The notes: generated by a model not told the origin, from the letters alone. Counted from the stretch's first letter, positions 22,393 to 59,740 are shown. The stretch: DNA of 64,000 nucleotides from an uncultured bacterium (GCA_900548385.1 URKJ01000012.1:24101-88100); one strand, 5' to 3'. Numbers and translations are program-made.

Positions 22393-22394
22393 AT

Positions 22395-22422: not shown

Positions 22423-22463
22423 AGAATATATCATATTCAATACAGAATAAAGGAGACGTTGAA

Positions 22464-27951: not shown

Positions 27952-27969
27952 TACAACTAAGGAACAAAA

Positions 27970-31896: not shown

Positions 31897-32706
31897 ATGT
31901 CCGCTTCGACCGTTCATCTGAATGCTCCGGAAATTCATCTGGGGGCGGTTTCCAAGACCCGGCTGACGGCGTTCTGGAATCATTTGACGCTGGGTGGATA
32001 CTACTGGCGGCTTTATCATCACACCGCCTGCGGAGCGGGAGTATTCCTTGATGGACAGAGGATTGAGCTGACGCCGGATAAGCTCTATCTGCTTCCGCCG
32101 AATTGCAATCTGAGAACATGGTCCGGCGGTGCGCCGGAGCAGCTCTATATTCATTTTGAAGTGGAAAATATTTCCGGCAGCCGCGCTCATCTGGTGAATG
32201 CGATCGACCTTGAGGGATCGGGGTGTGTCGCGGTGATTCTGAAAGAGCTGCACGATTGTTTTGCCGCGGAGAATTGCCCGCCGGCGCGGCGCAAACTGCT
32301 TGGCCTATCCCTTGTCACAGCATCAATAGCGAAACTTCCGCCGGAAGCGTTTTCCGAGATCGACTGCGACCGCCGCATTATCGACGCCTGTGACTATATC
32401 CGTTCGAATATCGACAAAGAGATCAATCTTGCGACTCTTTCCCGGATTGCGGGACTTTCGGAAAATGTATTCCTGCGGGATTTCAAGTCCCAGACGGGCA
32501 GTACTCCGTATCAGTATCTTCTGCATGTCCGGTATACGCAGGCGGCGCGTCTGCTTCAGTTCGGAAACTGTACGATCGACGAGATTTGTTATTCAATCGG
32601 CGTCAACGACCGCTTTCATTTTTCCCGCACATTCAAGCGGATGTACGGCGTTCCGCCTGCGCAGTACCGCAAACATCTTCAGGAACACTCCGTATTTACG
32701 GAGTGA
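31897..32706 (+). CDS. AraC-family transcriptional regulator
   Basis: Start at ATG 31897. Cupin-like N-terminus. C-terminal double HTH LSRIAGLSENVFLRDFKSQTGSTPYQYLLHVRYTQAARLL...FSRTFKRMYGVPP. Confidence 0.8.
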   Translation: MSASTVHLNAPEIHLGAVSKTRLTAFWNHLTLGGYYWRLYHHTACGAGVFLDGQRIELTPDKLYLLPPNCNLRTWSGGAPEQLYIHFEVENISGSRAHLVNAIDLEGSGCVAVILKELHDCFAAENCPPARRKLLGLSLVTASIAKLPPEAFSEIDCDRRIIDACDYIRSNIDKEINLATLSRIAGLSENVFLRDFKSQTGSTPYQYLLHVRYTQAARLLQFGNCTIDEICYSIGVNDRFHFSRTFKRMYGVPPAQYRKHLQEHSVFTE

Positions 32707-32928: not shown

Positions 32929-32957
32929 TTGACAAAATTCGCAGAATGTTGTATAAT
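32929..32957 (+). promoter_or_regulatory. consensus sigma70 promoter of cassette b
   Basis: TTGACA (32929-32934), 17-nt spacer, TATAAT (32952-32957). A T-rich tract lies upstream. Shares TTGACAAAATT with the promoter at 55146. Confidence 0.65.
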
Positions 32958-33005: not shown

Positions 33006-34037
33006 ATGGCGGATACGGCGGTTTCAGAATACATGAAAATACGGCGTTATGTGGTCAATCTGATTTACAAAGCGCGCGGAAAATCAATTCAGGTCCCGAC
33101 GATTTTGGAACTGGCGAAACAGTTTGGCGTAAGTCATGCGACGGTGAGCAAGGCGATGAAGGAGCTTACGACAGAGGGCTTTATCATCGGCCGGCGCGGT
33201 ATCGGATCGTTCACGAATCCGCGTCTGAGTGCTGCCGGCGGTATCCGGGAGCTGCCGGTGATCGGGATTCTGATGGAGGACGGCATGGGGGTGCATTTCG
33301 ACAAATACCTGGCACCCATTCTCGGGCAGATGCTTCAGCAGTTGGTCTGCCTGCCGGCGACGGTTCATCTCCTGACTCTGGGGAGCCTTGACCCTGAAGT
33401 TATGCACCGTGAGATTGTCAACGAGCAGCTCGACGGGCTCCTGTGGAATTGTCCCGAGGAAAGAGGCGTTGAGGTTGCCCGGCGGCTGCGGAGGGACGGG
33501 CTCCCTGTTGTTCTTCTCGGGAAGAAAGCCGAGGGGCTCTCCTCCGCCATGTTCGATTTTGAAGGATGGGGGATGGAGTGCGGAAAACAACTGCTGAAAG
33601 AGGGGCGGCGGAACGTCGTATTCCTGCCGGATGTGTTTCCGTGGAACCGTTCTTTCGGCGGAATTCGCGGAGTATACCGGGAAGCGGGCATTTCCCTCAA
33701 TGAGAATTTGTTTCTGAAGGACAGCTTCTCCTGTCTGGAGGAGTTGAAGCGGGTGATTGCGTACGGAGTTCCTGTCGATGCGGTCTGCAATACGCTTTTT
33801 TCGGAAAACGAGGTGAATGACGTTTTGCTGGCGGCGGATCCGGGGATCGTCTCCCGGTGCTGTCTGGTTCAAAGCTCCCTTGCGGCGGCACCGCACCCGG
33901 GCTTTCACCGGATCATCTATGGACTGCCGTTCGAGGAACTGATCGGAGAAGGAGTGGCTTTGATGAGGCTGGCTCTGGAGAAAAAAGATTCTCCCGGAGA
34001 GTGCCGGAAGGTCAGGCTGCCGATGATAATAAAATAA
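33006..34037 (+). CDS. AraR-type regulator (GntR winged-HTH + LacI/PBP-type sugar-sensor domain)
   Basis: 343 aa. wHTH PTILELAKQFGVSHATVSKAMKELTTEGFIIGRRGIGSFT, then a LacI-like periplasmic-binding-fold domain. Confidence 0.75.
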   Translation: MADTAVSEYMKIRRYVVNLIYKARGKSIQVPTILELAKQFGVSHATVSKAMKELTTEGFIIGRRGIGSFTNPRLSAAGGIRELPVIGILMEDGMGVHFDKYLAPILGQMLQQLVCLPATVHLLTLGSLDPEVMHREIVNEQLDGLLWNCPEERGVEVARRLRRDGLPVVLLGKKAEGLSSAMFDFEGWGMECGKQLLKEGRRNVVFLPDVFPWNRSFGGIRGVYREAGISLNENLFLKDSFSCLEELKRVIAYGVPVDAVCNTLFSENEVNDVLLAADPGIVSRCCLVQSSLAAAPHPGFHRIIYGLPFEELIGEGVALMRLALEKKDSPGECRKVRLPMIIK

Positions 34038-34052
34038 CGGGAGGTGTTTTTT

Positions 34053-34787
34053 ATGAAAGGAAAAGTGAAAAAATTTACGCTTCTAGAACTTTTAATTGCA
34101 ATTTCTGTAATTGCCATTCTTGCAGGACTTTTGCTTCCGGCATTGAACAAGGCCCGGGAGAGGGCGTACCAGGTCAAGTGCATGGGAACGATGAAGACGA
34201 TGATTTTCGCCGCACTGCAGTATGCCGATGACAGCGGCGGCAGGATGCTGCCGAGACAGACGACCTCCGATTTCATGGGATCGACCTGGGCCAGGAATGA
34301 ACATTTTCTGGAATTCGCGGGAATCAAATTCAGCAAGAACTATCCGATGTATTGGTATAAGCCGTTCATGTGTCCGACGGTGGATTTGACAAAGAAAGGC
34401 TGGAACCGGGAGGACATCGGAATGGCAACCAGTATTTACGGTATGCAGGATAAGATGGATCCTCTGACTCTGGAAGAGAGCCGGGAAACCGGAGTAATGC
34501 TGAATCAGGTGTTTGCCCCTTCATCTAAAATCTTTTTTCAGGAGTCAACCTATGGAGGACATCCGGTTGTTGGCAGCGGAACAAATCGCTCCTGGACATT
34601 GACTTATGGAGAAAATTTTGGTCAGGAGGGGCTGTCGGCGGGACAGAACTGGATCACATACCGCCACAATGGCCAATCCGCATCGAACAACGCTTATTAC
34701 GACGGTCATGTGGAGTGTAATGGCTATGCGTCCATGACTGATTCTTCTTCCCGCAGAAACAAACGGCTTTATTATAAGTATAAATGA
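34053..34787 (+). CDS. prepilin-type N-terminal methylation-domain protein, H-X9-DG-like family
   Basis: ATG 34053 is preferred (GGGAGG 9 nt upstream; the ORF track starts at GTG 34044). N-terminus [37 protein letters not shown]-terminal H-x11-DGHV. Confidence 0.85.
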   Translation: MKGKVKKFTLLELLIAISVIAILAGLLLPALNKARERAYQVKCMGTMKTMIFAALQYADDSGGRMLPRQTTSDFMGSTWARNEHFLEFAGIKFSKNYPMYWYKPFMCPTVDLTKKGWNREDIGMATSIYGMQDKMDPLTLEESRETGVMLNQVFAPSSKIFFQESTYGGHPVVGSGTNRSWTLTYGENFGQEGLSAGQNWITYRHNGQSASNNAYYDGHVECNGYASMTDSSSRRNKRLYYKYK

Positions 34788-34799
34788 AAGGAGCATTTC

Positions 34800-37700
34800 A
34801 TGAAAGTTAAATGGATCTTTTGTGTCCTGACCGCTGCGCTGTTTTTATGCGCCGCGGAAAAACCGGAAGATTTTCAGCCGGATTTCAAGACCTGGGACAT
34901 CTATCTGCCGCACCTGAACCGGACCTATCTTTCCGGCTGGTGGAAGTTGAAAAAAGTCTCGTCGGATCGCAGAAACGATCCCCTCGACGAAGGTACGAAG
35001 CGGAAGTTTCATCTCCCCGAAACGGATGACTCCGGCTGGGGGAAAGATCTTGTCCCGAACAATCTTCATGCACCGTTTTTGAGTCCGAATGCCACACGGG
35101 AGGAAAGAACTTGGGGCGGAGTCGCGTGGTTCCGGAAAGAATTTACCGCCCCCGAATTGAAGAAAGGGGAACGCGCGATCCTGCATTTCAATGAAGTGCT
35201 CGGCATATTCAAAGTCTGGGTGAACGGAACGCTTGTCGGCGAACAGGATTTCACCATGCCGACAAAATATTCGGATTACAAAGGTCCCGGAGACCAGTAT
35301 GATTATGATGTAACGGAACAGCTGCGTCCGGGTGCGAAAAATACGATTGCCGTGCGGTTGTTCCATACCGGGGAACCTGTGATGTGGAAAATCTGGGCGC
35401 CTTACTGCGGAATTCTGGGAACGGTGTATCTTGATGTAAAGCCCCCCGCATGGAGCGACCGGATTCTTGTCACGCCCGAAAAGAATCTCCGGGACGTTTC
35501 GTTCGAGTGTCTGCTCTCCGGTTCGGAGAACACGGAGGACACTGATTCCTGGAACGCGGAGATTTTTGAATGGAATAGCGGAAAGCGCGTGGCTTCGGCG
35601 GTGTTCGGGAAGGCTTATGCAGGGGATGGCGGACGTTATGTCGCGGGGAAGGCCTCCATTGAAGATGCGAAACTCTGGTCGCCGGAATCGCCGTTCCTTT
35701 ACGGAGTGAAACTCCGGAACCGGAAGGGGGAAGTGACCGGCGTTCAGCGGTTCGGAATGCGCACTTTCGGCGTGAAAGACGGCAATTTCGTGCTGAACGG
35801 AAAACCCGTCATGCTTCGCGGAATCTGCCAGGGGAACGAATATCCGCGGAACAGTCACGGCTATTCGTTTGCCATGACGACGAACGAGGGTGACGCCCTG
35901 CGCCGGTATTGGCAGGCATACAGGGATTCGAACGTCAATCACATCCGCATTCACAGCTGCGAACATTCGCCGAATACATACGACATCATGGACGAGCTCG
36001 GCTTCATTCTGACCGATGAACTCACCTATCCGACGGTCCACCTGAAAAACGCGGTTCTGGCGGAACTGATCGATACGAAAAGTTTTGACAGCGCCAGCGA
36101 CAAGACCGGAAAGCTGCTTCCGCAGTTTATCGGAAAGATCACCCGCCGGATTCACCGCAACTATTCGCATCCCTCCATCTGCACATACAGTTTCGGCAAC
36201 GAACTTCGCGATTATTCCGGACGCGCCGCAACGATGCTGAACAACCTTTACGATCTGTACCACCGGATCGACCGGCAGGGACGTCCGGTTACTTCCTCGT
36301 CCGGCAGATTCTGGAAGGACGGCAGCAATGTCGAAGAGCTCTGCAAAACGGAAAAAATGGATTATGCCGATACCCATGACTACACCGGGAGCATCAACAA
36401 TATGCCTTTGGCATACTGCCAGCCGGTGGCGGAACATTTTGTTTCGCTGCTCAAAAAACACTTTCCCGGCGGAAAGGTGCCGATCGTGAACGGAGAGACT
36501 GTTTATTTCGCCCAGCATTATTATGCCGGCATCACAGATGGAATCTGGCCGGAGGAAAGCGATAATTCTCCGAATTGGAAAAAGGCGCTGTTTGCACTCA
36601 ACGACTGGCATGCCAAAGAGCGCGGAACCGCTTTCCTCGCTCTCTACTGGATACGAAACTGGGGAATGAAAAATTACAAATTCCATCGTGATCTCGGCCG
36701 CGGAATTTACACGGACCGGATTCTGGAAGTCCAGCGGAAACTCTGGCCGGATATGGACGGTTTCGAGGCGCTTTCCGGTCCGTTCTTCCGGATGCCGAAA
36801 TCGGCGTATCCGTTTGACCGCCTGAAGTTTGAACCGAATGAAGCGTATTCCTACCTGCGCCGTGTTTGTGCGCCGCAGATCGTGATCCTTGATTATGTCG
36901 CGCCCAACCGGTTTACGGGAGAAACGGTTTCGACAAATGCGTATCTGATTAACAATTCGGAACGCGATGTGGAAAATGCCGTTCTTGAAATCGGTTTTGA
37001 ACGGAACGGAAAGTCCGTCGGCGGAACGCTGGCAAAAAAGATCGGCACGGTAAAAAGCAATGAGAAGAAAATCATCCCTGTTGAATTCAAACTTCCCGGA
37101 CGGGACGGGGCGTACCGGCTGGTGTACCGTTTCCTGTCCGGCGGAAAAGAGCTGAACCGCAGGGACGGCGATCTGAATCTCCGGAGCCGCGCGGAACTCT
37201 TTGCTCCGTTGAAGACTGCGAAGAGGATTGCGCTTTACGATGCTTCCGCCGTTTTCGGCGGTCTCAAACCTTACAGTTCGACGAAAGTGCTGAAGGCGTT
37301 CGGTGTGCCGTTCGTTCCCGTGGAGGATTTCAAAGAACTGAGGAAATATGATGTCCTGGTGATCGGCAACGGCTCCGTGGACGGGAAAGTGGCGGATGGC
37401 GCGGACGGAATCAGGGCATTCGTTGAAAACGGCGGGCGTCTGCTCGTTTTCGATCAGACCGTTTCCGGTCGGATTCCGTTCCTGCCGGAACTGGAATACT
37501 CGCTTGCGGGACCGGGGCAGTTCTCCGAGATTCTTCAGTTCGACCATCCCGTATTGAAGGGAATGACGCAGAAGGAGTTCTTCTGCTGGAATCAGAAAGA
37601 CTGGTCCGTGTACCGGGCTTACATCCGTCCTGTTTCGGAAGCTGCGCTGACGGTCGGCGGCAATTCCGGATCGTGGGGTGCCGACGCATTCGGCATGGTG

Positions 37701-38492
37701 TCCGCTCATTTGAAGCTCGGAAAAGGCGATGTGCTGATGACGCAGGCGGAAGTCACTTCCACGTTCCGGTCGGATTCCGGTGCCGCGCTTTTGGCCCGCC
37801 GTCTTTTGGAAACCGTTCTGGACGATGCAACCCGGAAAAACGCCTCGCCGTTTCGCGGGTACGAGGTCAAGGTTAAAGGACTGAAAGCGTCCCGCGCAAA
37901 GTTCATTTCCCTGAAAAATGCCGCGAATATGGCGTTTGCAGACGAGATTGCCAGAGACGGGAAGGGCGGGTGGACCGATCAGGGAGCCGTCAACGATCTT
38001 TCCCCGTTTCCCGTCGGCAGACGGATTTTCGGCGGTGTTCCGTTTCAAATCATTGATCCTGCGGAAAACGGCGGCCGCTCCTGCGTCGTCGTTTCCGGCA
38101 ACAGGACGCTTCCGTTTCAGCCGCGGAGCCGGAGTATCGAAATCGGCGGGCGGGTGAAGCGTCTTCTGTTCCTGCATTCCGGCGCGTGGATCGCTCCCGA
38201 CGGCGGACAGGTCGGCGAATATGAGGTTCGGTATGCTTCCGGGAAAACGTGGTCGATTCCGGTTGTGGAAGGGGTGAACATTACAGACTGGTGGGGACCA
38301 TCCAAAAAATTGAAATCGGCGATGTGCGGGTGGAGCGGTATGAATAAGAGCGGGGTCGTGGGTGCGTTCCTGTATTCCTGGGACAATCCGCATCCCGAAG
38401 ATCAGATAAGTTCGATCGTGTTGAAAACAAAAGGAAACGCCGTGGTGGGTCTGCTTGGCCTGACGGCAGAAAAAACGGAGGAGTCCGAATGA
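34800..38492 (+). CDS. secreted GH2-family glycoside hydrolase with ~600-aa C-terminal extension
   Basis: 1230 aa. Signal peptide MKVKWIFCVLTAALFLCAAE. GH2 blocks WFRKEFTAP..., LWSPESPFLY, NGKPVMLRG, acid/base FGNEL. The extension includes a flavodoxin/GATase1-like stretch YDVLVIGNGS...ENGGRLLVFDQ. Confidence 0.75.
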   Translation: MKVKWIFCVLTAALFLCAAEKPEDFQPDFKTWDIYLPHLNRTYLSGWWKLKKVSSDRRNDPLDEGTKRKFHLPETDDSGWGKDLVPNNLHAPFLSPNATREERTWGGVAWFRKEFTAPELKKGERAILHFNEVLGIFKVWVNGTLVGEQDFTMPTKYSDYKGPGDQYDYDVTEQLRPGAKNTIAVRLFHTGEPVMWKIWAPYCGILGTVYLDVKPPAWSDRILVTPEKNLRDVSFECLLSGSENTEDTDSWNAEIFEWNSGKRVASAVFGKAYAGDGGRYVAGKASIEDAKLWSPESPFLYGVKLRNRKGEVTGVQRFGMRTFGVKDGNFVLNGKPVMLRGICQGNEYPRNSHGYSFAMTTNEGDALRRYWQAYRDSNVNHIRIHSCEHSPNTYDIMDELGFILTDELTYPTVHLKNAVLAELIDTKSFDSASDKTGKLLPQFIGKITRRIHRNYSHPSICTYSFGNELRDYSGRAATMLNNLYDLYHRIDRQGRPVTSSSGRFWKDGSNVEELCKTEKMDYADTHDYTGSINNMPLAYCQPVAEHFVSLLKKHFPGGKVPIVNGETVYFAQHYYAGITDGIWPEESDNSPNWKKALFALNDWHAKERGTAFLALYWIRNWGMKNYKFHRDLGRGIYTDRILEVQRKLWPDMDGFEALSGPFFRMPKSAYPFDRLKFEPNEAYSYLRRVCAPQIVILDYVAPNRFTGETVSTNAYLINNSERDVENAVLEIGFERNGKSVGGTLAKKIGTVKSNEKKIIPVEFKLPGRDGAYRLVYRFLSGGKELNRRDGDLNLRSRAELFAPLKTAKRIALYDASAVFGGLKPYSSTKVLKAFGVPFVPVEDFKELRKYDVLVIGNGSVDGKVADGADGIRAFVENGGRLLVFDQTVSGRIPFLPELEYSLAGPGQFSEILQFDHPVLKGMTQKEFFCWNQKDWSVYRAYIRPVSEAALTVGGNSGSWGADAFGMVSAHLKLGKGDVLMTQAEVTSTFRSDSGAALLARRLLETVLDDATRKNASPFRGYEVKVKGLKASRAKFISLKNAANMAFADEIARDGKGGWTDQGAVNDLSPFPVGRRIFGGVPFQIIDPAENGGRSCVVVSGNRTLPFQPRSRSIEIGGRVKRLLFLHSGAWIAPDGGQVGEYEVRYASGKTWSIPVVEGVNITDWWGPSKKLKSAMCGWSGMNKSGVVGAFLYSWDNPHPEDQISSIVLKTKGNAVVGLLGLTAEKTEESE

Positions 38493-39247
38493 AAAAACAA
38501 AATTGGATTTTGGGGGCGGTTCTCGCGGTCTGCGGAGCCGGAGCACTTGCAGCGGAAACGTACACCAGTGACGGTTTCAGTGCAAGGATCACGAACAGCG
38601 GAATGATCGAGAACCTGCGGTACAGGGAGCAGCTGCTCTGCAAACTGATTCAGCTGAATGGTTCCTATCGGCTGCCGCCGGATGCGCAGAAATACGATGC
38701 GCGGTTTTTCCAGTCGTGGGACGGTTCCGGAAAGGCGGTCTGCAAACGGGACGGCGACACGATGATGGTTACGATTGATTCGAAGCTTGGGAACAAGGTT
38801 CTGAAGGATGCCGCGGATTACAAAGTCGAAACCATGTTGACTCCGAACCGGATCACGGTCCGCACCTCCGTCAAGTTGAACGTTCCCCTGCAGACAACTT
38901 TCAACCTTTTCCAGACGATCATGAACATGCCTCCCGCATTTTTCGGCCGCGGAGTGAAGTGTACGGACGGTTCAGCTCCGGAACGGTTTGAGATCCTGCC
39001 CGAAACTTACAATAAAGCGTTCCGGTTGAAAGGCGATTCAATCGCCGTTTCCACGGGCAAAGGGGTTTTCCTCGTTGCGGGCGGCAAAGGAGTGACCGTC
39101 AATTTCATGGATTCCCGCATGTGGGGCGGCAAGGATTTTTCATTTACCGTCGCCGGTCCTGCGAAGTGGACACCGAAGGCGGTGGAGCATCCTGCGGGCA
39201 GCACTTTCAGCTGGGAGTTTACGCTCTCTTTTGAACCGGAGAAGTAG
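38489..39247 (+). CDS. secreted hypothetical protein, translationally coupled to the GH2 gene
   Basis: 252 aa. ATGA start/stop overlap with the GH2 gene. Signal peptide MKKQNWILGAVLAVCGAGALAAE. No recognisable motif. Confidence 0.55.
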   Translation: MKKQNWILGAVLAVCGAGALAAETYTSDGFSARITNSGMIENLRYREQLLCKLIQLNGSYRLPPDAQKYDARFFQSWDGSGKAVCKRDGDTMMVTIDSKLGNKVLKDAADYKVETMLTPNRITVRTSVKLNVPLQTTFNLFQTIMNMPPAFFGRGVKCTDGSAPERFEILPETYNKAFRLKGDSIAVSTGKGVFLVAGGKGVTVNFMDSRMWGGKDFSFTVAGPAKWTPKAVEHPAGSTFSWEFTLSFEPEK

Positions 39248-39262
39248 TCGGCATGGTTATGG

Positions 39263-39308
39263 AAAAAGGGCTGCCGCGTACCCGGAGGTTTTGCGACAGC
39301 CACTTTTT
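39263..39308. terminator. bidirectional terminator between convergent cassettes
   Basis: Stem GGCTGCCGC (39269-39277) / GCGACAGCC (39293-39301), 8 of 9 pairs. Flanked by AAAAA (39263-39267) and TTTTT (39304-39308). Confidence 0.6.
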
Positions 39309-39329
39309 CCGCCGTTGAACGGGCGAATG

Positions 39330-42300
39330 TTATTCCGGCCGGACCAATATGCCGCCTGCCCTGGAACGGTCGCGCAGATCGACGTTGAAACCGAGGAACC
39401 GGATCGGAAAGTCGATTGTCCCATTGCGTTTTCCGCCGTACCGGATCACCTTTTTGCCGAAGATTTCCGTCGGCTTGAACGTCAGACTTTGCCATACTCC
39501 CGGTTTTACATTGCGGAGCTCCTGCTTTAACTGGAATGTTTCGCCGGAATGGTCCAGCAGGAGCAGACTGACGGCTTTGACATTGTCCGTTTCCGGGAGA
39601 AAACGGAATTCGACGGTGCGTTTCAGTTCTTTTGCCGAGGCGGCGAACGGATAGGGTACGGTACGGAAAATATTGCCGTATCCGCGCTGCGGCGAGGCGA
39701 TCCAGGAAAGTCGCAGAGCAGTCTCTTTTTCGGCGCCTTTCAACTGGAAACCTTTGGAATAGTTGCACCAGCTTCCGGTTTTGAGCTTTGCCGGAGCCGA
39801 GATCAGCATTACGCGATCGGTGAACTGCCGTCCATCCGCCGTTTGGAACAGAGCGGTCAGATAACGGTAATCTCCGGTCGGGAAATCGGCGGGAACGTAC
39901 AGTGTAAACGTCGCGGTTCCCATTCCGTCCGCCGGGATCGTCAGATGCCGTTCCGCCGGTGTGACTTTCCACAGGAATTCCCGCCACGAAGCGGAAGCAT
40001 CCAGACGGATAGTTCCTGTCAGCGGCGCTGCCGACTGATTGTAAATCCGGACAGTGACGGTTTTTGCCTGTTTCGGGGCGGCGTTCAGCCGGACGCCTTT
40101 CATTTCATCGCAGCCGCGTCCCATGTTGTCCGCATCCGGCAGAATACGGACCGTTGCGGCGGTTTCCGGGAATATTTTTCTGCCTGCCGTGGTTTTAACG
40201 GTTTCCAGTTCCGGAGTCAGTTTTCCGCGGACAAATACCGGATATTCGTCCACGGGGACCGCGATTTCACCGTTCCGGTTTTTCAATGTGGATACAACGC
40301 CGTCCGAGGAGACAAGTTCCGCATCGCCGGAGGCTTTGATCCGGACCGTTTCCGCCGGATGAATGAGTTCTGCAAACGGGATTTCGAACCGGTCATAGCC
40401 GTAGGCGTCGTTGCGCCAGAATGCCAGAACGTCGCGTCCGGCTTTGTCGCGGAATGCGAAACCGGCGATCTTTCCCGCGGCAAAGGAGTGTCCTTTGATA
40501 AAGCCCCGGAATGCGGCATCGCCGATCATCCGTGCAGTGGTGCGGTATGCCGCCGCTCCGGGTTTCGGAAGACCGTAGCGGTTGGTCATTCCGAAATCCT
40601 CTTCCAGATAATCAAGCGGAACATCGCGGAATGTGTAGACCAGCACTTTCGAGGCACCGAACGCTTTTCCGCCGACCATCGTTTTCGGAACGTGGAGAGC
40701 AATATAGCGCGCGACTTCCTCCGGGGAACGCTGCGGGATGACGTGGCGGGCGCTGTAAGTCGAAACGCCGATTTCCGTCAGCCAGACCGGTTTTTCCGCG
40801 ATTCCCGCGGCTTCCATGGAACTGTTCAGCTGACGGCATTTTCCGGCGATTCCCCAGAAACCGGGAACATAGAAGCCGTAGATATGCGCGGCGACCGCAT
40901 CGGTCAGTTTTCCGGTTCCGAGCCGCAGGACGGGATCGTGGTGTGCGGAAACGTCGCCGAGAATGATGTTGGCTTGCGGATCCGCAAGCCGGATCGCCTT
41001 TGCCAGCGTTTTGGCATACTGCGCATAATCTTCCGGCATCATTTTCCAGTAATAGGGTTCGTTGCCGAGTTCCCAGTCGTGGATGTCGTTCTTGTATTTC
41101 TGAACCATTTGGAAGACTTCTTCCGCCGCGTTTGCGAACTCCGGCGCAATACCGTGTTCCGCCCATTTTGCGCAGACCGCACTGTTTGCGCGGCTCTGTT
41201 CCATCTGCCTGGGACTATAGCCGCGGCAGATCAGAAGCGGCCGGAAGCCATGTTTGCGGACGACCCGGAAGAGGTCGCGTGCACCTTCGCGCTCGTTTCC
41301 CGCGTCATTGCGGATGATGCTCACGCCGAGTTCCCGGAGAATGTCAAAATCAGGCAGTTCGTTTGTGTAGGAGTTTGCCCAGCGCTGAAGATGAACCGTG
41401 AACCCGAAATCTCCATCGGCTCCGTAATCCGGCATTTTCTCCCGCATGACGGCAAACGGAATCCGGACCGCCTTTCCTTCGTATGCCGGATCGTCCGGGA
41501 ATACGGAAAGTTCATAATAGCCGTCTTTGGCGGGGAGCGGGAAACGATGGATGCTGACTCCCTGTTTCAGATCGGTTTTGACCGTGTTTTCGGAAACGGT
41601 TTCTCCCCGTGCGTTGCGGATTTCAAGTTTCAGGACCGCCTGTTTCCGGGCGTTTGCCGAACGGATTTTCAACTCTCCCTGTGACGGAGCATCCGCAAAG
41701 AAGAAGTTCTTTTTTGTGTTCAGCAGCGGAGCGATTGCAAGATCGGAAGTGGAGGCAACACGGAATCCGCCGTATTCTTCTTCGGAATTGTCGTTTCTCT
41801 GCAGGAAGCGGATCGTGTTGAGCAGATCGGGATCCTGTTGTTTGTCGTTTGCGCCCAGAAAGACCGGGGCTCCGGCGTAGTACTTGTTTTCCATCCATTC
41901 GCTGACTCCGGAGGCGTGATTGCGGATGCCGTAATGGGACGGTTTTCCGGCGTCTGCTTTGGTGATGACGGGATAACCGCCTTTGCCGTCATAGAATCCC
42001 GCTTTGTAGAATTCGTGCATGTCAGGCAGAAAATAGAGACGCGGCGAATCCGGCGTCGTCAGATCCCGCCAGCCGATGATGCCGGGGGCGGAAGAGCCGT
42101 TCGGGCGTGTCCCCCGGAAAATCCGGTAGACCGGTCCCCTGGAGAGCCAGTTGCAATACCGGGCGGCATCGACGCGGCTTACATGGTTAACGGGTTTTTC
42201 CGCGTCTTCCGGCGAAACTTCGTACCGGTATGCGCCCTCGTTTCCGGTGCGGCGGATCCGCATTTTCGGATTGTACAGGCCGTCAGGATCACTTGCTGCG

Positions 42301-42506
42301 ACGGCGTTCAGAAATTTTACATATTCCGCGTTGGTGACTTCCGTTTCGGCGATGCGGTAAGGATAGGAGACCGTACCGCGCGGATAGCCTTTTTTAGAGG
42401 TGAACGGTACGACTTTTCCCGGATTTCCAAGGTCGCCGATGGTGATGAAATTCCCGGCGGTGGCGGAAAGGGCGGTCAGCAGAGCAAGATTCAACAGTTT
42501 TTTCAT
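39330..42506 (-). CDS. secreted fusion: SUMF1/FGE-type domain + clan GH-A glycoside hydrolase + C-terminal beta-sandwich regions
   Basis: Start at ATG 42506 (RBS GAGGTG; signal peptide MKKLLNLALLTALSATAG). FGE-type blocks VTNAEYVKFLN, VNHVSRVDAARYCNWLS, SGVSEWM, GGFRVAS. GH-A motifs WELGNEPYYW and VWLTEIGVS. Confidence 0.65.
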   Translation of the reverse strand: MKKLLNLALLTALSATAGNFITIGDLGNPGKVVPFTSKKGYPRGTVSYPYRIAETEVTNAEYVKFLNAVAASDPDGLYNPKMRIRRTGNEGAYRYEVSPEDAEKPVNHVSRVDAARYCNWLSRGPVYRIFRGTRPNGSSAPGIIGWRDLTTPDSPRLYFLPDMHEFYKAGFYDGKGGYPVITKADAGKPSHYGIRNHASGVSEWMENKYYAGAPVFLGANDKQQDPDLLNTIRFLQRNDNSEEEYGGFRVASTSDLAIAPLLNTKKNFFFADAPSQGELKIRSANARKQAVLKLEIRNARGETVSENTVKTDLKQGVSIHRFPLPAKDGYYELSVFPDDPAYEGKAVRIPFAVMREKMPDYGADGDFGFTVHLQRWANSYTNELPDFDILRELGVSIIRNDAGNEREGARDLFRVVRKHGFRPLLICRGYSPRQMEQSRANSAVCAKWAEHGIAPEFANAAEEVFQMVQKYKNDIHDWELGNEPYYWKMMPEDYAQYAKTLAKAIRLADPQANIILGDVSAHHDPVLRLGTGKLTDAVAAHIYGFYVPGFWGIAGKCRQLNSSMEAAGIAEKPVWLTEIGVSTYSARHVIPQRSPEEVARYIALHVPKTMVGGKAFGASKVLVYTFRDVPLDYLEEDFGMTNRYGLPKPGAAAYRTTARMIGDAAFRGFIKGHSFAAGKIAGFAFRDKAGRDVLAFWRNDAYGYDRFEIPFAELIHPAETVRIKASGDAELVSSDGVVSTLKNRNGEIAVPVDEYPVFVRGKLTPELETVKTTAGRKIFPETAATVRILPDADNMGRGCDEMKGVRLNAAPKQAKTVTVRIYNQSAAPLTGTIRLDASASWREFLWKVTPAERHLTIPADGMGTATFTLYVPADFPTGDYRYLTALFQTADGRQFTDRVMLISAPAKLKTGSWCNYSKGFQLKGAEKETALRLSWIASPQRGYGNIFRTVPYPFAASAKELKRTVEFRFLPETDNVKAVSLLLLDHSGETFQLKQELRNVKPGVWQSLTFKPTEIFGKKVIRYGGKRNGTIDFPIRFLGFNVDLRDRSRAGGILVRPE

Positions 42507-42516
42507 GGGAACCACC

Positions 42517-43200
42517 TCACCACGGAGCCGTTGCTATGCCGCTTTCCCAGGAGAGATATCCCCACCAGGCATAACGAGTTTCCGGAAATTCCCGGTTCAT
42601 AGTATCTCCGACACGGCGGAAACGGATGCTTTGGACGTGACCGTCGAGGAATGCGCCGTTCATGTTCATGCCATGATCCCAGCGCAGTTGTTTGTAGGCG
42701 GTCGCATCGCCGAAAAAGTGATAACTGACGATCCAACTGGTTGTTTCCAGAATGGTCGGGCATTTGGTCGGACGGGACACTTTTTCGATTCTGACCGGAG
42801 ATTTCGGGGATTTCTGACTGTCCATTCCGTGCCACATGATGAGATTGTTTCCGCCGTAACCCTGTGTTCCGTTCATCGGTTTGCGATTGGAAGGGCATTG
42901 CCAGACTTTATTGTTCATTTTCTGATTTCTCTGCCGTCCGCCGAGATACATACGGTCCAGAATCCCGTGCCACTGATTGTCGAATTCCATGGAAGTGGTG
43001 GAAGAGACGCACGGAACAATGAAGCCGGTATCATTCGCATACATGGTGACGGCTGATATCTGCTGTTTCATGTTCCCCATGCATGCCATCTGCTGCCCTT
43101 TTTCCCGTGCCTTGTTCAGTGCCGGCAGGAGCATTGCTGCGAGAATTGCAATGATTGCGATTACGACGAGGAGCTCTATGAGGGTAAATCTCCGTTTCAT
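42517..43200 (-). CDS. prepilin-type N-terminal methylation-domain protein, H-X9-DG family
   Basis: 227 aa. N-terminus [34 protein letters not shown]-terminal [18 protein letters not shown] overlap with the regulator gene. Confidence 0.88.
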
Positions 43201-44324
43201 TGTGACTTTCCTTTTTTGATTGATTTGTTATTTTGAACCGTTTTGATGCTTTTTCGTTCGATGATTTCCTGTTCACAGAAGAAGAAATGTTCGTCAAGGA
43301 ATTTTCCTCCCGCGATTTCCGTTGCCCGTTTGCACATGCCGTCGTAATGCGGGCAGACCGCAGAGAGCGGCGGATTGCTGTATTCCAGCCAGGTGGATTC
43401 TCCTTCGGAGATCAGGCTGATGTCATCCGGCACGGCGAAGCCGCCTTCCACCAGAATGGGAATTGCCGCAACGGCACCCACGCCGGAGGTGTAGACCAGT
43501 GCGGAAAGTTTCTGTTTCCGGATATTGTCCAGATTTTTTGCAGTGATCTGACGGGCGGCGTTCAGGGAGTTTTCCCATGGGCGGATCGTTTCCGAGAAGA
43601 TATGGGATGCCGGTATCACGGCTCCGTTCCGGCGGAGTGTTTTGACAAAGGCGTTCTGTTTCCGGATTCCGTAATCGCTTTGCGGTTCATTGCGTACATA
43701 ACCGACCCGCTCGTGCCCGTGCTGCAGCAGACATTCCGCCATGAGACGCCCGGAAAGCTCCGGTTCGTGTGACACAATATAAAGATTTTCCGGCATGTCT
43801 TCGTAATAGGATTGACTGTCCAGCAGAACCACGGGAACGGATTGTCTGCCGAGAATTTCCAGCTCTTCATGACTGTAACGGTCCGGAGTCGGAATGATCA
43901 GAATTTCCCGGCAGTTCGGATAACGCGCCGCCGCTTCTGTGATGGCCCGGACCGTGGTGTCCGGCTGCATTTTGTAGGAGATTACCTGAAAACCGCTCTG
44001 TTTGGCGTATTGTTCCGTCATGAATTCAAGTCTCCAGAGCTGTTCCGACGGATAATCCGGATATGCGAAAAAGATGGATGCCGCGTTCTGCGCCGCATCG
44101 GGAACTTCCGGATTCTGCGGCATGCGCGCCGCCACAATACCCCGTCCCTGCTGACGGATGATCACATTTTCGTGTTCCAGTTCGATCAAAGCCTGATTCA
44201 CGGTTGCCATTGCAACGCTGAATCTGCGCAACAAAGTGCGTACCGAGGGCATGGAAGTGATTGCTTCCGGTTTCAGCGCCTCCGCTTTCAGATATTCTTT
44301 GATCTGCACATATTTTGGAACCAT
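43197..44324 (-). CDS. AraR-type regulator (GntR winged-HTH + LacI/PBP-type sugar-sensor domain)
   Basis: 375 aa. w[44 protein letters not shown], followed by a LacI-like sensor domain. Confidence 0.7.
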
Positions 44325-44367: not shown

Positions 44368-44396
44368 ATTATACAACAAAATCATGAAAATGTCAA
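44368..44396 (-). promoter_or_regulatory. consensus sigma70 promoter of cassette c
   Basis: Minus strand: TTGACA (44396-44391), 17-nt spacer, TATAAT (44373-44368), preceded by ccctc and a T-rich tract. Lies 43 nt upstream of ATG 44324. Confidence 0.65.
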
Positions 44397-55217: not shown

Positions 55218-56324
55218 ATGACACGGCAATACTCCGGGACAAAGGCGCAGCAGATCAGAGATGAATTGTTGCGGCAGATACGGATCGGGAATTTTCCACG
55301 CGGCTCCCAGCTGCCCTCGGAACAAAGACTGTCAGAGCAGCTTGGAGTCAGCCACATGACGGTCCGTAAAGCGGTGGCGGATTTGACTGCTTCCGGATAT
55401 TTGCGTAAAGAGCCGCGGATCGGCACGTTCATCAACGAAGAGATTTCCGGCAGCAAACTGCAAAAGCAGCTTGGCATTGTCTGTCCGGCATGGCCGCATC
55501 CCATGTTTAACGAGTCGATGATGCATTTGAGCCGGATTTTTGAACGGGAAGGCTGGATTTGCCGTTATGCGTTTGCGCGGCATTGGGAAGACCGGATGAT
55601 CGAGGAGGTCTGGAAGAGTTCGGATGCGCTGGTTCTGTTTCCGATCCGGTCACGGGAACAGATTCCGCCGGAGCTTCTTCAACGTCTGGAGTCGCAGGAA
55701 AAGCCGGTGGTGTATGTCGGCAACCCGGATGTGTTCCGGACGGATACCGTGTCGTTTGATGATGAGGCGGGGATCGGAATGCTGTTGCGGGAGCTCCGCA
55801 AGTTCGGGCACACCTGCATCGGACGTCTTTCCCAACGGATCCCGGAGAGGAAGCTGCGTCCGCGTGACGAACGGCTGTTTCTGGAAGCCGCGGCGGAAAA
55901 CCCGTGGTGCCGCATTGTGGACTTTGATGTGGAATGCCCTTATTTTGAATCTCCGGTGAATGCGGTTTACCGGAAAATCCGGGAGCAGGGGATCGGAGAA
56001 TGCACGGTTCTTGCCGGGAGTTACAGTATGATTCTTGCCGCCCATGCCGCGTTGGTCGACAGCGGATTCCGGGTGCCGGAAGACGTGTCGCTGGTTGTTC
56101 TTGGAGAAAACGGCGATTTGCAGTTCCTCCGTCCGCGTCCGGCCCATTGCTCGTTTTCAGTTGAGGTGCAGGCAAAACTGATTTTAGAACTGATTCTCCG
56201 CCGGATTGCGGATCCGGACCGTCCGGTCCGCAACCCGAAAGTCCCGCCCTGTTTTTATCACGGGGAGACTCTGGCGGAATCTCATGCAGCAATACGGAAC
56301 AATAACACAGGAGAGTACAGATGA
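55218..56324 (+). CDS. AraR-type regulator (GntR winged-HTH + LacI/PBP-type sugar-sensor domain)
   Basis: 368 aa. wHTH LPSEQRLSEQLGVSHMTVRKAVADLTASGYLRKEPRIGTFI, followed by a LacI-like sensor domain. Confidence 0.75.
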   Translation: MTRQYSGTKAQQIRDELLRQIRIGNFPRGSQLPSEQRLSEQLGVSHMTVRKAVADLTASGYLRKEPRIGTFINEEISGSKLQKQLGIVCPAWPHPMFNESMMHLSRIFEREGWICRYAFARHWEDRMIEEVWKSSDALVLFPIRSREQIPPELLQRLESQEKPVVYVGNPDVFRTDTVSFDDEAGIGMLLRELRKFGHTCIGRLSQRIPERKLRPRDERLFLEAAAENPWCRIVDFDVECPYFESPVNAVYRKIREQGIGECTVLAGSYSMILAAHAALVDSGFRVPEDVSLVVLGENGDLQFLRPRPAHCSFSVEVQAKLILELILRRIADPDRPVRNPKVPPCFYHGETLAESHAAIRNNNTGEYR

Positions 56325-57073
56325 AAAAAGGAAAAAACAACGTCAGGAAATTTACCATTATAGAACTCTTAATAGTTGTTTCTATTATATCAATTCTTGC
56401 CGCTATGCTGCTTCCGGCTTTGAACAAGGCGAGAGAAAGAGCCCGTACAATAACCTGTGTCAACCGGAAAAAAGAGTGTATGCTGGCGTTGTTTCAATAT
56501 GGCAGTGATTACGGCATGATCGCCGGGATCACCAAGGATTCAAAGTGCTGGTACAATCTGATTGTGACGGGAAACCGGCCGGAAAATCTCGGCTATCTGA
56601 AACCGGGAATGCTGATCTGTCCGTCCAACCGTTATGTTCCGCCGGATCTTGTTTCATTCAGCGACGATCAGGTATCCTATGGAATGGAGCGGATCGCCCA
56701 TTACATGGAAGCGGACTTGCTGGAGGCGAACGGGGCAGGCAGCTGTTTTGATGTTTCCCGGAACAATACCTGGGGCTTTCTTCAGCCTGAAAGAGTCCGG
56801 ACGCCCTCGCGTCTGCTGCTGATCGCGGACAGCGCGCGCGGCGGACATCAGAAGCCGTGGACCGGTTATCAGAACGGCGGAGGCGGGAGCAGTTTTTTCT
56901 ATACTTACCAACCGCATGAACGGCGCATTCATCTGATCCATGAGGAGAGAACGGTTGCCGGATTTGTGGACGGGCATGTGGCGTCGCTTTCGTTTTCCGG
57001 TCTTTATTATGATACGACCAATCGGATCCGTTACGTTTATGCGCAGGACGGAACGACTCTGCTGAACCGCTGA
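56321..57073 (+). CDS. prepilin-type N-terminal methylation-domain protein, H-X9-DG family
   Basis: 250 aa. ATGA overlap with the regulator. N-terminus [40 protein letters not shown]-terminal H-EERTVAGFV-DGHV. Confidence 0.88.
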   Translation: MKKGKNNVRKFTIIELLIVVSIISILAAMLLPALNKARERARTITCVNRKKECMLALFQYGSDYGMIAGITKDSKCWYNLIVTGNRPENLGYLKPGMLICPSNRYVPPDLVSFSDDQVSYGMERIAHYMEADLLEANGAGSCFDVSRNNTWGFLQPERVRTPSRLLLIADSARGGHQKPWTGYQNGGGGSSFFYTYQPHERRIHLIHEERTVAGFVDGHVASLSFSGLYYDTTNRIRYVYAQDGTTLLNR

Positions 57074-57088: not shown

Positions 57089-59740
57089 ATGAAAATCCAG
57101 TTTTCCGTATTTCTTTCTGTGTTTGTCCTGTTTCTTGGCGGGGCGGAATATCGCATCGGGGACCGGGCGGGAGTGCCGTGGATCATGCGGGATGGCATCC
57201 CGGTTTCCCCCCGCATGGTTTATGTGAGCCGGACCGCTCAGGAGATCGCGACTGTCGGGCCGCAATGGAAAGAGTTCACGCTTCGTTTTTCAATTTTGAA
57301 GAGCTGTGACAATGCCGCTCTGCATTTGCGTTTTTTCAGCATGGCATTCCGCAGGGAACCGGAATCGGTTCAGTTTTCCAGAATCGAAGTGCAGGAAGCA
57401 TCATCGGGTCGTGTGGTCAAGTCGTTCCGGTTCGACGGGGAGAAGCCGGATCCCTCCATTGATTTCTGGTGCACCGGGAAATGGAAAAACGGAAAACGGA
57501 TGCCGGTTCCTGTGGAATTTGCCAATCGCCGGCTTCCGGGTGCTCCGGACGGAGCGTTCTGTGTGACTTCCAAGGGCGATCCCGGCGGCAGGCTCGGCGA
57601 ATTTCATCTGATTCTTTACGGAATCCCCGTGGAGAAAGAACGGGATTATCAGATTATCTGCCGTGCGCGTGCCGACCGGGAACAGAACCTGACGTCGTCG
57701 CTTTATCATCAGATCGCCGTTCCGCAGGCGCTGGCATATCCCGGAACGACTCTGCGGGAACAGGTGAGACTCGCTGCCGACGCAGGGGTTGATTTTGTCA
57801 CGTTTCCGGTTGACGGGATTTGGCGGAAAGCCGGCGAGCCTGCCGATTACTCCGTTCTGGACCGGATTTGCCGTACAGTTCTGGAAGTCAATCCGCGTGC
57901 CCGGCTGATTCCGCGTGTTGATCTGAGGACGCCGCCGGAATGGTGGCAGAAAAAATATCCCGGAGAGATGATGAAATTCACGTCCGGCGGAAACGGCGGT
58001 TATCCGTCGGTCTCTTCGCTTCAGTACCGCCGGGATGCGGCGGAGGCGCTCCGGGAGGTGATCCGGTTCTGTGAAACACGTTTCAAAGACAATATGGCGG
58101 GGTATCATCCGACGGGCGGCAACACGCATGAATGGTTTTATTACCGTTCCCAGAGGCGGATTCTGAGCGGGTATGATGAGGCGACCCGTTCCGCATGGCG
58201 TCGCTTTCTGCGCAGAACTTACAACGATGACAGGAGTCTCAGGACTGCGTGGAATATGCCGGATGTCTCGCTGGCCTCCGCGGAAATACCGTCGCCGGAA
58301 TATCGCCGCCGGAATCGCCCGGTTTCTCTGCTTTCTCCGTTATCTGATCGTCCGCTGATTGATTTCAACCGTTTTTTGCAGGAAGAAATGTCGGAAACCG
58401 TTTTATCGCTGGCCCGTGTGATCCGGACGGAAACGGGCGGGACGCGTCTCAGCGTGGTGTTTTACGGTTATCTCTTTGAACTTTCCGCGATTGCAAACGG
58501 ACCCGCCTGCTCCGGGCATTATGCACTGCGGCGGATTCTCGCTTCGCCGGATGTTGATCTTGTCGCCGGACCGATTTCTTATTTGGATCGTCAGCCGGGA
58601 GGTGGGACGACAACCATGACGGCGGCGGATTCCGTGATGCTGTCCGGCAAACTCTGGCTGAATGAGGATGATACCAGTACGCATACCGCTTACCGGAACG
58701 GCAATCGTGCCCCCGGTTGGAAGAGCGGAGCAATGACGCAGGAGCAGAGTCTTCTTCTGCTGCGCCGGAATCTGTCGGTGTCGGCGTTCCATGGATTCGG
58801 GATCTGGTGGATGGATCTGTTTGGTGCCGGATGGTTTACCGATCCTGTGCTGTGGAAACTGATGCGGCAGTTTGCCGCTCTGGATACCGCCATGCGGCAG
58901 CCTGCGGACACACAGCTTGCAGAAATCATTGATGAAAATTCTCTGCTGTATCTCTCTCCTGCCGGTTTTGAACGGAATTACAATTCCGCCGTCAGCGGAC
59001 CGCTGATCAAAAACGGACGCGCAGCTCGCGGACGGACCGGCGCTTCTTCGGGGCAATATCTGCTGGATGATCTGCTTGCGGGCAAAGTCAAATCCGGATT
59101 GAATGTAATCACTTCCGCCTGGGCGCTTGACGGCGTTCAGAGAAAGAAACTCCGGGCATTGTCGGAACAGGTCCCTGCGTTCTGGTGCTGGGCGCCCGGC
59201 TATCTTGACCTTGATTCCGGAAAATTCTCGTTGAAAGCCGTGGAAGAGACGACAGGATTCCAGGTCCGCAAGCAGGTGCGGGGGAGCTTTGCGATCCGTC
59301 CGACCGCCGCCGGCTTGAAGTTCGGTTTGACGGATTCCGTTTCCGTCGCCCGGGAGTCTGTTGATCCGGTTCTTTCCCCGGTTTGCCGCAACGGGGATAT
59401 TGTGCTTGCCGAATACCTGGACGGTGCTCCGGCTGTTGTCCTCCGTCCGGGAAAAGTTCCCGCTTTGTTCTGCGGCATTACCGATATTCCCGCCGGACTC
59501 TACCGCAGTTTTGCCGCGTTTGCGGGGATTCATCTGTATACAGACCGTCCGGCTTATGTTCTGCGGCGCGGAGAGTGGCTGAGTGTCACAGCGCCGGAAC
59601 AGGGATTTTATAAGATCAGCACCGGAACCGGTGACGGGATTGTGGATTTCTTTTCCGGCAGAAAACTTGGAACCGGTCCGGAACTCAGGATTTTTTTCCG
59701 GAAAGGGGAAAACCGGATATTCCGGTTGAATCCGGAATGA
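57089..59740 (+). CDS. secreted GH42-like / clan GH-A-like hypothetical glycoside hydrolase (family unassigned)
   Basis: 883 aa. Signal peptide MKIQFSVFLSVFVLFLGGAE. TIM-barrel-like region with GGNTHEWFYY and WRRFLRRTYNDDRSLRTAWN (the GH42-style F..WL...Y....L..AW pattern). Confidence 0.5.
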   Translation: MKIQFSVFLSVFVLFLGGAEYRIGDRAGVPWIMRDGIPVSPRMVYVSRTAQEIATVGPQWKEFTLRFSILKSCDNAALHLRFFSMAFRREPESVQFSRIEVQEASSGRVVKSFRFDGEKPDPSIDFWCTGKWKNGKRMPVPVEFANRRLPGAPDGAFCVTSKGDPGGRLGEFHLILYGIPVEKERDYQIICRARADREQNLTSSLYHQIAVPQALAYPGTTLREQVRLAADAGVDFVTFPVDGIWRKAGEPADYSVLDRICRTVLEVNPRARLIPRVDLRTPPEWWQKKYPGEMMKFTSGGNGGYPSVSSLQYRRDAAEALREVIRFCETRFKDNMAGYHPTGGNTHEWFYYRSQRRILSGYDEATRSAWRRFLRRTYNDDRSLRTAWNMPDVSLASAEIPSPEYRRRNRPVSLLSPLSDRPLIDFNRFLQEEMSETVLSLARVIRTETGGTRLSVVFYGYLFELSAIANGPACSGHYALRRILASPDVDLVAGPISYLDRQPGGGTTTMTAADSVMLSGKLWLNEDDTSTHTAYRNGNRAPGWKSGAMTQEQSLLLLRRNLSVSAFHGFGIWWMDLFGAGWFTDPVLWKLMRQFAALDTAMRQPADTQLAEIIDENSLLYLSPAGFERNYNSAVSGPLIKNGRAARGRTGASSGQYLLDDLLAGKVKSGLNVITSAWALDGVQRKKLRALSEQVPAFWCWAPGYLDLDSGKFSLKAVEETTGFQVRKQVRGSFAIRPTAAGLKFGLTDSVSVARESVDPVLSPVCRNGDIVLAEYLDGAPAVVLRPGKVPALFCGITDIPAGLYRSFAAFAGIHLYTDRPAYVLRRGEWLSVTAPEQGFYKISTGTGDGIVDFFSGRKLGTGPELRIFFRKGENRIFRLNPE

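Follow-up and report, generated by a model that had tools for sequence, protein, structure and literature searches.

The subject of this analysis is a gene cassette found in a 64,000-nucleotide stretch of DNA from an uncultured gut bacterium of the Lentisphaerota (GCA_900548385.1, URKJ01000012.1:24101-88100), called the window below. In this cassette a pilin-like gene of the DUF1559 / H-X9-DG family stands directly before the gene for a large exported carbohydrate-active enzyme (CAZyme), and in its complete form it follows a gene for an AraR-type regulator. A six-frame motif scan found four such pilin-like genes in the window. All four sit 10-26 nt 5′ of a different large glycosidase gene with a signal peptide, and three of them follow a regulator that joins a GntR domain to a sugar sensor. 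We hold it very probable that the cassette is a real functional unit. The DUF1559 family, AraR-like regulators and GH2 enzymes were known before; what appears to be new is their systematic arrangement in regulator / pilin-like / exported-CAZyme cassettes. Our literature searches found no earlier description of this linkage, which agrees with a preliminary description of the window, made from the sequence alone, that had called it uncharacterised.

That description covered two of the four pilin-like genes, those of cassettes b and c, and the coordinates it gave for all genes of both cassettes were reproduced in our list of open reading frames (ORFs). Cassette b, on the plus strand, consists of regulator b (33006..34037, 343 aa), pilin-like protein b (34053..34787, 244 aa), an exported GH2 enzyme (34800..38492, 1230 aa) and, as the fourth gene, an exported 252-aa protein (38489..39247). 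Cassette c, on the minus strand, consists of regulator c (43197..44324, 375 aa), pilin-like protein c (42517..43200, 227 aa) and exported enzyme c (39330..42506, 1058 aa). The junctions are as tight as had been described. Regulator c and pilin c overlap by 4 nt in an ATGA, as do the GH2 gene and the 252-aa gene, and the remaining junctions are gaps of 10-15 nt with Shine-Dalgarno-like purine runs. The perfect TTGACA-N17-TATAAT promoters reported for both cassettes lie at 32929..32957 (+) for b and 44368..44396 (-) for c. Both lie directly 5′ of the regulators, and no other 12/12 match occurs in 12.5 kb. Between the convergent cassettes is an 82-bp spacer that folds as a GC hairpin (39261..39310) with A-run and U-run flanks (-33.8 kcal/mol, z -2.3). 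By this fold prediction it looks like a bidirectional intrinsic terminator, as had been proposed.

The two cassettes had been presented as convergent copies of one module. Both are real, and the picture changed in that the window holds four cassettes and the convergence of b and c is incidental, because a relative with 80% pilin identity has cassette b facing a different GH42-type triad and carries cassette c on another scaffold. A functional meaning of the convergence was rejected on this ground. Recent duplication of one cassette was also rejected. The enzymes are unrelated, the regulators are only 22-24% identical and the pilin heads 19-25%; the cassettes are therefore old diverged modules.

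Whole cassettes are inherited together while their surroundings change. Triad c was found in a metagenomic relative (L001) with 58% identity for the regulator, 65% for the pilin and 68% for the enzyme, and in a Lentisphaeria metagenome-assembled genome (MAG; L007) with 39%, 43% and 47%, respectively. In a third relative (L004), a pilin c orthologue (35-41%, depending on the alignment) lies directly 5′ of an enzyme c orthologue (46%). The flanks of these three loci are completely different each time. Cassette b recurs as a four-gene unit (GntR regulator, pilin-like protein, GH2 enzyme of 1230-1245 aa and 252-aa protein) with pilin identities of 98%, 80% and 41%; in the latter two the flanks are unrelated. 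Near-identical contigs are present in metagenome assemblies, at 97% (P0001) and 98% (P0258). Regulator b is kept 5′ of the pilin b orthologues in L091-L094. The 252-aa protein is kept in length and position (L092:14442-15200, L093:14528-15286) down to 41% pilin identity. The idea of a self-contained regulator / pilin-like / exported-CAZyme module, similar to a polysaccharide utilization locus (PUL), was thus upheld.

We counted the linkage across 86 related loci, which are the closest relatives of pilin c rather than a random genome-wide sample. A scan with one genome per species gave 80 loci, nearly all from gut or rumen Lentisphaeria/Victivallales with a few from Verrucomicrobiia and Planctomycetota, and its best match was 43%. 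Genes were called with a home-made codon-model caller trained on the Pfam-verified genes of the window, and pilin-like genes and regulators were located with hidden Markov models. On the window itself this caller correctly rejected the long antisense shadow ORFs; 15 loci of deviating composition were poorly called. The other genes of the same loci served as controls, which are conservative because they were drawn from the same CAZyme-rich neighbourhoods. A same-strand gene of at least 600 aa within 200 bp downstream was found for 45 of 93 pilin-like genes and for 36 of 633 other genes (odds ratio 15.5, p 6e-24). An AraR-type regulator was directly upstream of 25 of 87 pilin-like genes, compared with 15 of 653 other genes (odds ratio 17, p 2e-15). 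The downstream partner had a signal-peptide-like N-terminus in 51 of 63 cases, compared with 137 of 570 for other genes (odds ratio 13, p 6e-19). The enrichment 5′ of signal-peptide enzymes and 3′ of AraR-type regulators that the preliminary description had proposed to look for is therefore present in these loci.

The gene order is strict. The large gene lies directly 3′ of the pilin-like gene 41 times and directly 5′ of it 6 times, and the median gap is 23 nt. Among 53 downstream partners, Pfam identified GH5, GH42, GH92, GH123, GH27/36, BNR sialidase-like, heparinase-type lyase, CBM4/9 and other families. The gene directly 5′ of the pilin-like gene is a GntR regulator with a periplasmic-binding-protein (PBP) domain in 23 of 72 cases, a LacI regulator in 4, an AraC regulator in 3 and a further gene of the pilin-like family in 8. 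There are 17 complete triads of regulator, pilin and large gene, among them two divergent ones in the cultured Victivallis vadensis DSM 14823 and one in a Planctomycetaceae MAG. Gene calls that had been pre-computed independently and annotated with Pfam show the same pattern. The triad is common, not universal. The linkage is statistically strong across Victivallales and extends to Verrucomicrobiia and Planctomycetota.

Could two abundant gene families simply lie side by side by chance? The 64 kb contain at least eight CAZyme-like genes beside the four pilin-like ones, and about half of the pilin-like genes have no large exported partner. Against this stand odds ratios of 13-17 with p values of 1e-15 to 1e-24 over controls from the same CAZyme-rich loci, the strict order and tight spacing, and the retention of whole cassettes across deep divergence while the flanks change. 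The partners in the window are also exported CAZymes only. All four partner enzymes and the 252-aa protein have signal-peptide-like N-termini, as had been claimed for enzymes b and c, and the cytoplasmic CAZymes outside these pairings (GH127, SASA esterase, melibiase-like and WbsX-like) have none. We consider chance adjacency extremely improbable.

We propose that each cassette is an autonomous sugar-responsive polysaccharide-utilisation operon in which the pilin head binds the target glycan. The complete model is plausible and tentative, and we stop a little short of calling it probable. A strong sigma-70 promoter would drive an autoregulated AraR-type repressor, with a GntR DNA-binding domain and a LacI-type sugar sensor, and a sugar released from the substrate would act as the inducer. 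The DUF1559/H-X9-DG pilin-like protein and then the Sec-exported CAZyme would be encoded next. The pilin-like protein would be the dedicated envelope component of the operon. Its near-invariant N-terminal helix would serve as a universal adaptor into the inner membrane and into a shared machine encoded elsewhere, similar to a type II secretion system (T2SS) or type IV pilus (T4P). Its rapidly diverging head would give specificity for the substrate of the operon, and might either capture the target glycan for the co-expressed enzyme or draw the glycan into the periplasm. A glycan-binding pilin-like protein of this kind would fill the slot that SusD/SusC take in the PULs of Bacteroidota. Co-transcription, sugar induction, fibre assembly and glycan binding are all steps that we infer.

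By homology, the four window proteins are members of the DUF1559 / H-X9-DG family. Pilin a scores above the cutoffs of PF07596 (30.4 vs 23.3) and TIGR04294 (19.0 vs 19); pilins b, c and d gave no hit to either model. Full-length homologues of b, c and d nevertheless carry PF07596 and the H-X9-DG annotation of JGI. At thresholds of E<=1e-3, E<=1e-10 and E<=1e-30, an exhaustive search with a family profile over clusters at 50% identity returned 401,072, 248,009 and 63,451 cluster representatives, respectively, and a word-indexed search with a pilin-like protein gave at least 7,964 matches. In Planctopirus limnophila the family is the largest group of paralogues and has no assigned function (PMC10632474). 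Both sources bear out the earlier statement that the family is massively expanded without an assigned role.

The pilin-like proteins begin with a basic leader of 4-10 residues, followed by an invariant F-T-L-I-E-L-L (F+1, E+5), about 20 hydrophobic residues and LPALNKARE. Further on they have a conserved Cys...Cys-Pro pair and a C-terminal H-X9-DG-H-V. The motifs that had been described as shared by b and c, namely K/R-FT(L/I)(L/I)[12 protein letters not shown] at the N-terminus, LPALNKARE and H-Xn-DGHV at the C-terminus, are all present in both; pilin b, with X11, departs from the X9 spacing of a, c and d. In pilin c numbering, F5, T6 and E9 (F+1, T+2 and E+5) are invariant in 92 homologues and in all four window copies, and H176, N181, D186, G187 and H188 are at least 90% conserved in the 92 sequences. 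Compared with one another, the window paralogues are 73-90% identical over the N-terminal 30 mature residues and 19-25% identical over the remaining head. That E+5 and the helix as a whole are invariant speaks for assembly with a partner common to these proteins.

Each of the four scores above the TIGR02532 cutoff of 16.3 (21.9 for c, 18.1 for b, 21.4 for a and 16.6 for d), and pilin c alone reaches the cutoff of Pfam N_methyl, PF07963 (21.2 vs 21.2). The claim that this N-terminus defines a type IV pilin or pseudopilin was therefore correct for the TIGR02532 match and for F+1 and E+5; it did not hold for Gly at -1. The residue at -1 of the presumed prepilin site is R in c and K in a, b and d. 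Gly was found at this position in 13 of 92 homologues and in 2 of 91 locus copies, both in the Planctomycetaceae MAG, and the other copies have mostly R, K or N. Gly at -1 is needed for cleavage by the classical prepilin peptidase. Since it is replaced by K, R or N, processing by this peptidase cannot be assumed. The replacement points to either a Lentisphaerota prepilin peptidase with altered specificity or no cleavage.

If there is no cleavage, the protein could be an uncleaved periplasmic protein anchored in the inner membrane that forms no fibre. Its head would then lie in the periplasm and bind oligosaccharide products, retain or organise the partner enzyme close to the inner-membrane transporter, or relay a signal. 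The K, R or N at -1 in most Lentisphaerota members, with Gly only in the Planctomycetaceae copies among the examined loci, is in line with this, and a type II signal-anchor would likewise show a short basic leader and then about 20 hydrophobic residues. Members of the family adjoin MFS and ABC importers. The Pfam-scanned ORFs of the window include no T2SS/T4P ATPase, platform protein, secretin or prepilin peptidase, as had been noted before, and this too would suit an anchor. So would the Pfam name SBP_bac_10 and the term solute-binding family used for the DUF1559 domain in an older paper (PMC2754498). Several observations speak against a plain anchor. F+1, T+2 and E+5 are invariant across the 92 homologues, and E+5 has no obvious role in such a protein. 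A buried Glu at +5 is a hallmark of subunit-subunit packing in assembled pilins. The helix has stayed 73-90% conserved among old paralogues, which suggests a shared interaction partner. The structural model described below is a further objection. Taken together, we consider the uncleaved anchor unlikely.

An AlphaFold2 model of pilin c was built from the 92 homologues (pLDDT 79.5, pTM 0.79). It consists of an N-terminal helix of 52 residues, a second, short helix and four beta-strands. The top PDB matches in Foldseek are type IV pilins, aligned over the helix only, and no PBP structures are among the PDB matches. A periplasmic solute-binding protein, as the name SBP_bac_10 implies, was rejected because the model shows a single long helix with a small sheet and not a two-lobed PBP fold. 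An orthologue of GspG was also rejected. TIGR01710 scores were 22.5-31.2 bits against an equivalog cutoff of 88.85, and only the N-terminal ~55 residues were aligned.

The partner enzymes bear on a different alternative, the leading idea of the preliminary description, in which the pilin-like protein is an enzyme-specific secretion adaptor. As a minor pseudopilin in the tip or body of a shared T2SS pseudopilus, it would recognise the folded, co-expressed enzyme in the periplasm and escort it through a secretin or tether it at the surface. The partners are overwhelmingly large Sec-exported enzymes (51/63 vs 137/570), and the strict order (41 vs 6) with its median 23-nt gap would suit stoichiometric co-production. 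Pilin/enzyme pairs stay together even where pilin identity has fallen to ~41-43%, the GspG, GspH and ComG pseudopilin models give the N-terminal regions their best scores, and T2SS-E/F genes are present in the clade. In a Lentisphaerae MAG, a regulator/pilin/CBM-enzyme triad is preceded at 5 kb by two tandem T2SS-E ATPases with MshEN domains and a T2SS-F platform gene (L036:933-5689). These machinery genes are a candidate for the shared machine.

Several findings do not fit an adaptor for single enzymes. The four window enzymes are unrelated in sequence (E 1-3). All-against-all BLAST of 43 partner enzymes found no common docking module, only sporadic accessory modules of ~150-170 aa, which would leave every head in need of a separate protein-protein interface. 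An operon of four enzymes can begin with a single pilin-like gene. The GspG scores of 22-31 bits are far below 88.85, and the lack of Gly at -1 applies here as well. We know of no precedent for one pseudopilin per T2SS substrate. The secretion adaptor is therefore, in our judgement, a rather doubtful explanation that nevertheless deserves some weight.

Three atypical loci are informative here. In a Verrucomicrobiia locus (L089), an operon for four different enzymes begins with one or two pilin-like genes. In V. vadensis, one triad ends in an MFS sugar transporter. In an Omnitrophota MAG (L090:8001-11445), an importer operon (Peripla_BP_2 / FecCD / ABC_tran) starts with a DUF1559 pilin-like gene; it encodes a periplasmic binding protein, and a secreted enzyme is absent. 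This importer is of the B12 or siderophore type, adjoins a CobA gene and has a T2SS-E ATPase 4 kb away. The pilin-like gene takes the place that a gene for a TonB-dependent receptor usually has in Proteobacteria.

We prefer a head directed at the substrate because the 43 partners share no common module, because of the multi-enzyme operon, the enzyme-free importer operon and the V. vadensis MFS triad, and because there are precedents. Dextran binds to pili-like fibres in Planctomycetes (PMC5394234). In Akkermansia, MUL genes encoding pili are needed to accumulate mucin products in internal compartments (PMC12418764). In Caldicellulosiruptor bescii, xylan both induces the PilA protein and is bound by it (bioRxiv 10.1101/614800). 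On balance the evidence leans away from a strictly enzyme-specific escort.

A number of points weigh against the glycan-binding operon that we propose. The 86 loci are a sample of close relatives of pilin c, and gene calling as well as signal-peptide prediction relied on home-made heuristics. A large exported partner is present at only about half of the pilin-like genes, and an AraR-type regulator is directly 5′ of only about one third. Nothing convincing was found in the way of operator palindromes at the cassette promoters. None of the four window copies has the canonical Gly at -1, and in ~86-98% of the examined family members it has likewise given way to K, R or N. The pilin head gave no significant match to a solved lectin, carbohydrate-binding module (CBM) or pilin head, either in Foldseek against PDB or by sequence search. 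The ABC-importer context comes down to one locus of another phylum plus one Peripla_BP_2 hit among the 53 partners.

A wider version of the operon model would make DUF1559/H-X9-DG proteins the interchangeable, substrate-specific capture subunits of a shared retractile T4P/T2SS-like fibre in the Planctomycetes-Verrucomicrobia-Chlamydiae (PVC) bacteria and some Omnitrophota. Such a fibre would pull polysaccharides and other nutrients across the outer membrane, as a pilus-based alternative to SusCD/TonB-dependent import, and every catabolic operon would bring its own hook. We regard both the fibre and this mode of uptake as speculative and unlikely at present.

The regulators had been described as AraR-type in both cassettes. 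The GntR winged helix-turn-helix (HTH) was found in b and c, with PF00392 scores of 32.2 and 34.4 bits, and in d with 60.8 bits (cutoff 27). The Peripla_BP_3 sensor was found in regulator c (62.1 bits) and regulator d (29.2 bits; cutoff 26.5). The sensor of regulator b was matched only weakly, RbsR-like at E 0.003 and the LacI-family structure 4rk0 in PDB at E 0.028, so the description holds fully for c and in part for b. Beyond the HTH, BLAST showed no similarity between regulators b and c, and regulators b, c and d are mutually 22-24% identical. The best PDB match of the regulator b HTH is Bacillus subtilis AraR (4egy). Like that protein, regulators b, c and d join a GntR-type winged helix to a LacI/PBP-type sugar-binding domain, with the caution that this domain is just marginally detectable in b.

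Genes for AraC-family regulators were seen beside several cassettes. One lies directly 5′ of cassette b (31897..32706, +), ahead of its promoter and in the same arrangement in L091, and another lies upstream of cassette d (54286-55116, +); both are possible co-regulators. An AraC gene is also found just 3′ of the cassette c orthologue in L001, and L088 has divergent AraC genes in place of the GntR regulator. The AraC genes may reflect dual control by an activator and a repressor.

The assignment of the 1230-aa enzyme b to GH2 was confirmed by Pfam (Glyco_hydro_2_C 57.6 vs cutoff 21, Glyco_hydro_2 25.6 vs 23). It has 111 GH2 relatives in PDB. The best are beta-glucuronidases (E 1e-20), and beta-galactosidases are also among the best solved relatives. 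Enzyme c had been called a SUMF1 plus clan GH-A enzyme. The first part stands, with an N-terminal FGE-sulfatase domain at E 1.7e-11. The second is a distant GH5/clan GH-A-like TIM barrel whose GH5 match in Pfam is below threshold. The 252-aa protein had no match in Pfam or NCBIfam. In the L087 and L065 cassettes, a ~250-aa Laminin_G_3 (ConA-like lectin) protein stands in a comparable position.

Cassette b may release glucuronate. This suggestion comes from the closeness of the GH2 enzyme to beta-glucuronidases, from hexuronate catabolism genes in the window (16631-23426, +; a UxuB/UxaB-like mannitol-dehydrogenase-family gene, altronate dehydratase and UxuA) and from the Mannitol_dh and MFS genes 5′ of the cassette b orthologue in L092.

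Cassette d is a third complete triad of AraR-type regulator, pilin-like protein and enzyme. Its promoter (55146-55174, +) is an 11/12 match with an extended TG. It is followed by regulator d (55218..56324, +; GntR plus Peripla_BP_3), pilin-like protein d (56321..57073, +), which has an ATGA overlap with the regulator, and an exported 883-aa GH42-like enzyme with a signal peptide (57089..59740, +). Cassette a lies on the minus strand, with a promoter matching at 11/12 positions (9784-9756), pilin-like protein a (8990..9718) and an exported 1064-aa enzyme with a signal peptide and a weak GH5 match (5769..8963). It has no GntR regulator directly upstream. The gene 5′ of pilin a encodes a WbsX-like protein, and two LacI regulators are nearby. 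These two are in tandem (11141-12109, + and 12227-13237, +), between cassette a and the melibiase-like gene, and an ORF overlapping the first of them (10982-12190, -) is probably a shadow ORF.

Other antisense shadow ORFs of up to 1233 aa lie opposite real genes, including 34845-38546 (-), 39549-41684 (+) and 26098-28419 (-). Matching no family and outscored by the sense strand under the codon model, they are artefacts. A 1249-aa protein (48133-51882, +), directly after HflX and before YbaB/RecR, gave only weak coiled-coil-type matches.

PVC bacteria play a major part in breaking down complex glycans, in the gut as in the ocean, and they do this outside the SusCD paradigm. The cassette linkage is the first strong functional clue for the DUF1559/H-X9-DG family, which is among the largest without known function. 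It offers a testable functional hypothesis and a practical annotation handle for PUL-like loci in Lentisphaerota and Verrucomicrobiota. Experiments are feasible since complete triads are present in the cultured type strain V. vadensis DSM 14823. If fibre uptake were true, DUF1559 proteins would be players behind the fibre-associated uptake of macromolecules in Planctomycetes, and possibly behind pilus-dependent mucin foraging in Akkermansia, and this would come close to a new category of nutrient-acquisition system.

Within the DUF1559 (PF07596)/TIGR04294 family, the window proteins are a Lentisphaerota subtype with [13 protein letters not shown] and K/R/N at -1. Like GspG-K pseudopilins and type IV minor pilins, they have a short basic leader, F+1, E+5 and a hydrophobic stretch of ~20 residues, and the AlphaFold2 model of pilin c predicts a long alpha-1 helix with a small head of beta-sheet. 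They differ in the absence of Gly at -1 and in scores for GspG, GspH, GspI and GspJ far below the cutoffs. Their genes are scattered singly in catabolic operons instead of being clustered with the machinery, and they number tens to hundreds of paralogues compared with about five. The head, with its H-X9-DG / Cys-Cys core, has no solved homologue.

C. bescii PilA is a polysaccharide-induced, polysaccharide-binding pilin encoded near glycan-degradation genes (bioRxiv 10.1101/614800), as the cassette proteins are proposed to be. It is, however, one major pilin in a complete T4P locus that serves adhesion in a monoderm, and there is no paralogue for each enzyme operon. Fibre- or pilus-associated uptake in PVC bacteria belongs to the same superphylum, and its proposed link to DUF1559 comes from gene context. 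The molecular players of this uptake in Planctomycetes are still unidentified (PMC12673574).

Another close parallel is with the SusC/SusD PULs of Bacteroidota. No TonB_dep_Rec, Plug or SusD family was found in the scanned window ORFs or in the pre-computed contexts of the relatives, and a pilin-like protein of ~230 aa stands in the SusCD slot. The cassettes are much smaller, with 3-4 genes, and their regulators are AraR-type, LacI or AraC, whereas PULs use hybrid two-component or ECF/anti-sigma systems. Both are compact units in which a local sugar-sensing regulator is combined with exported glycoside hydrolases and a dedicated non-catalytic envelope protein, and in both cases one genome has many paralogous units, the enzyme family differing from one to the next. 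We classify the cassette as a PUL-like catabolic operon in which the pilin-like protein replaces the SusCD pair.

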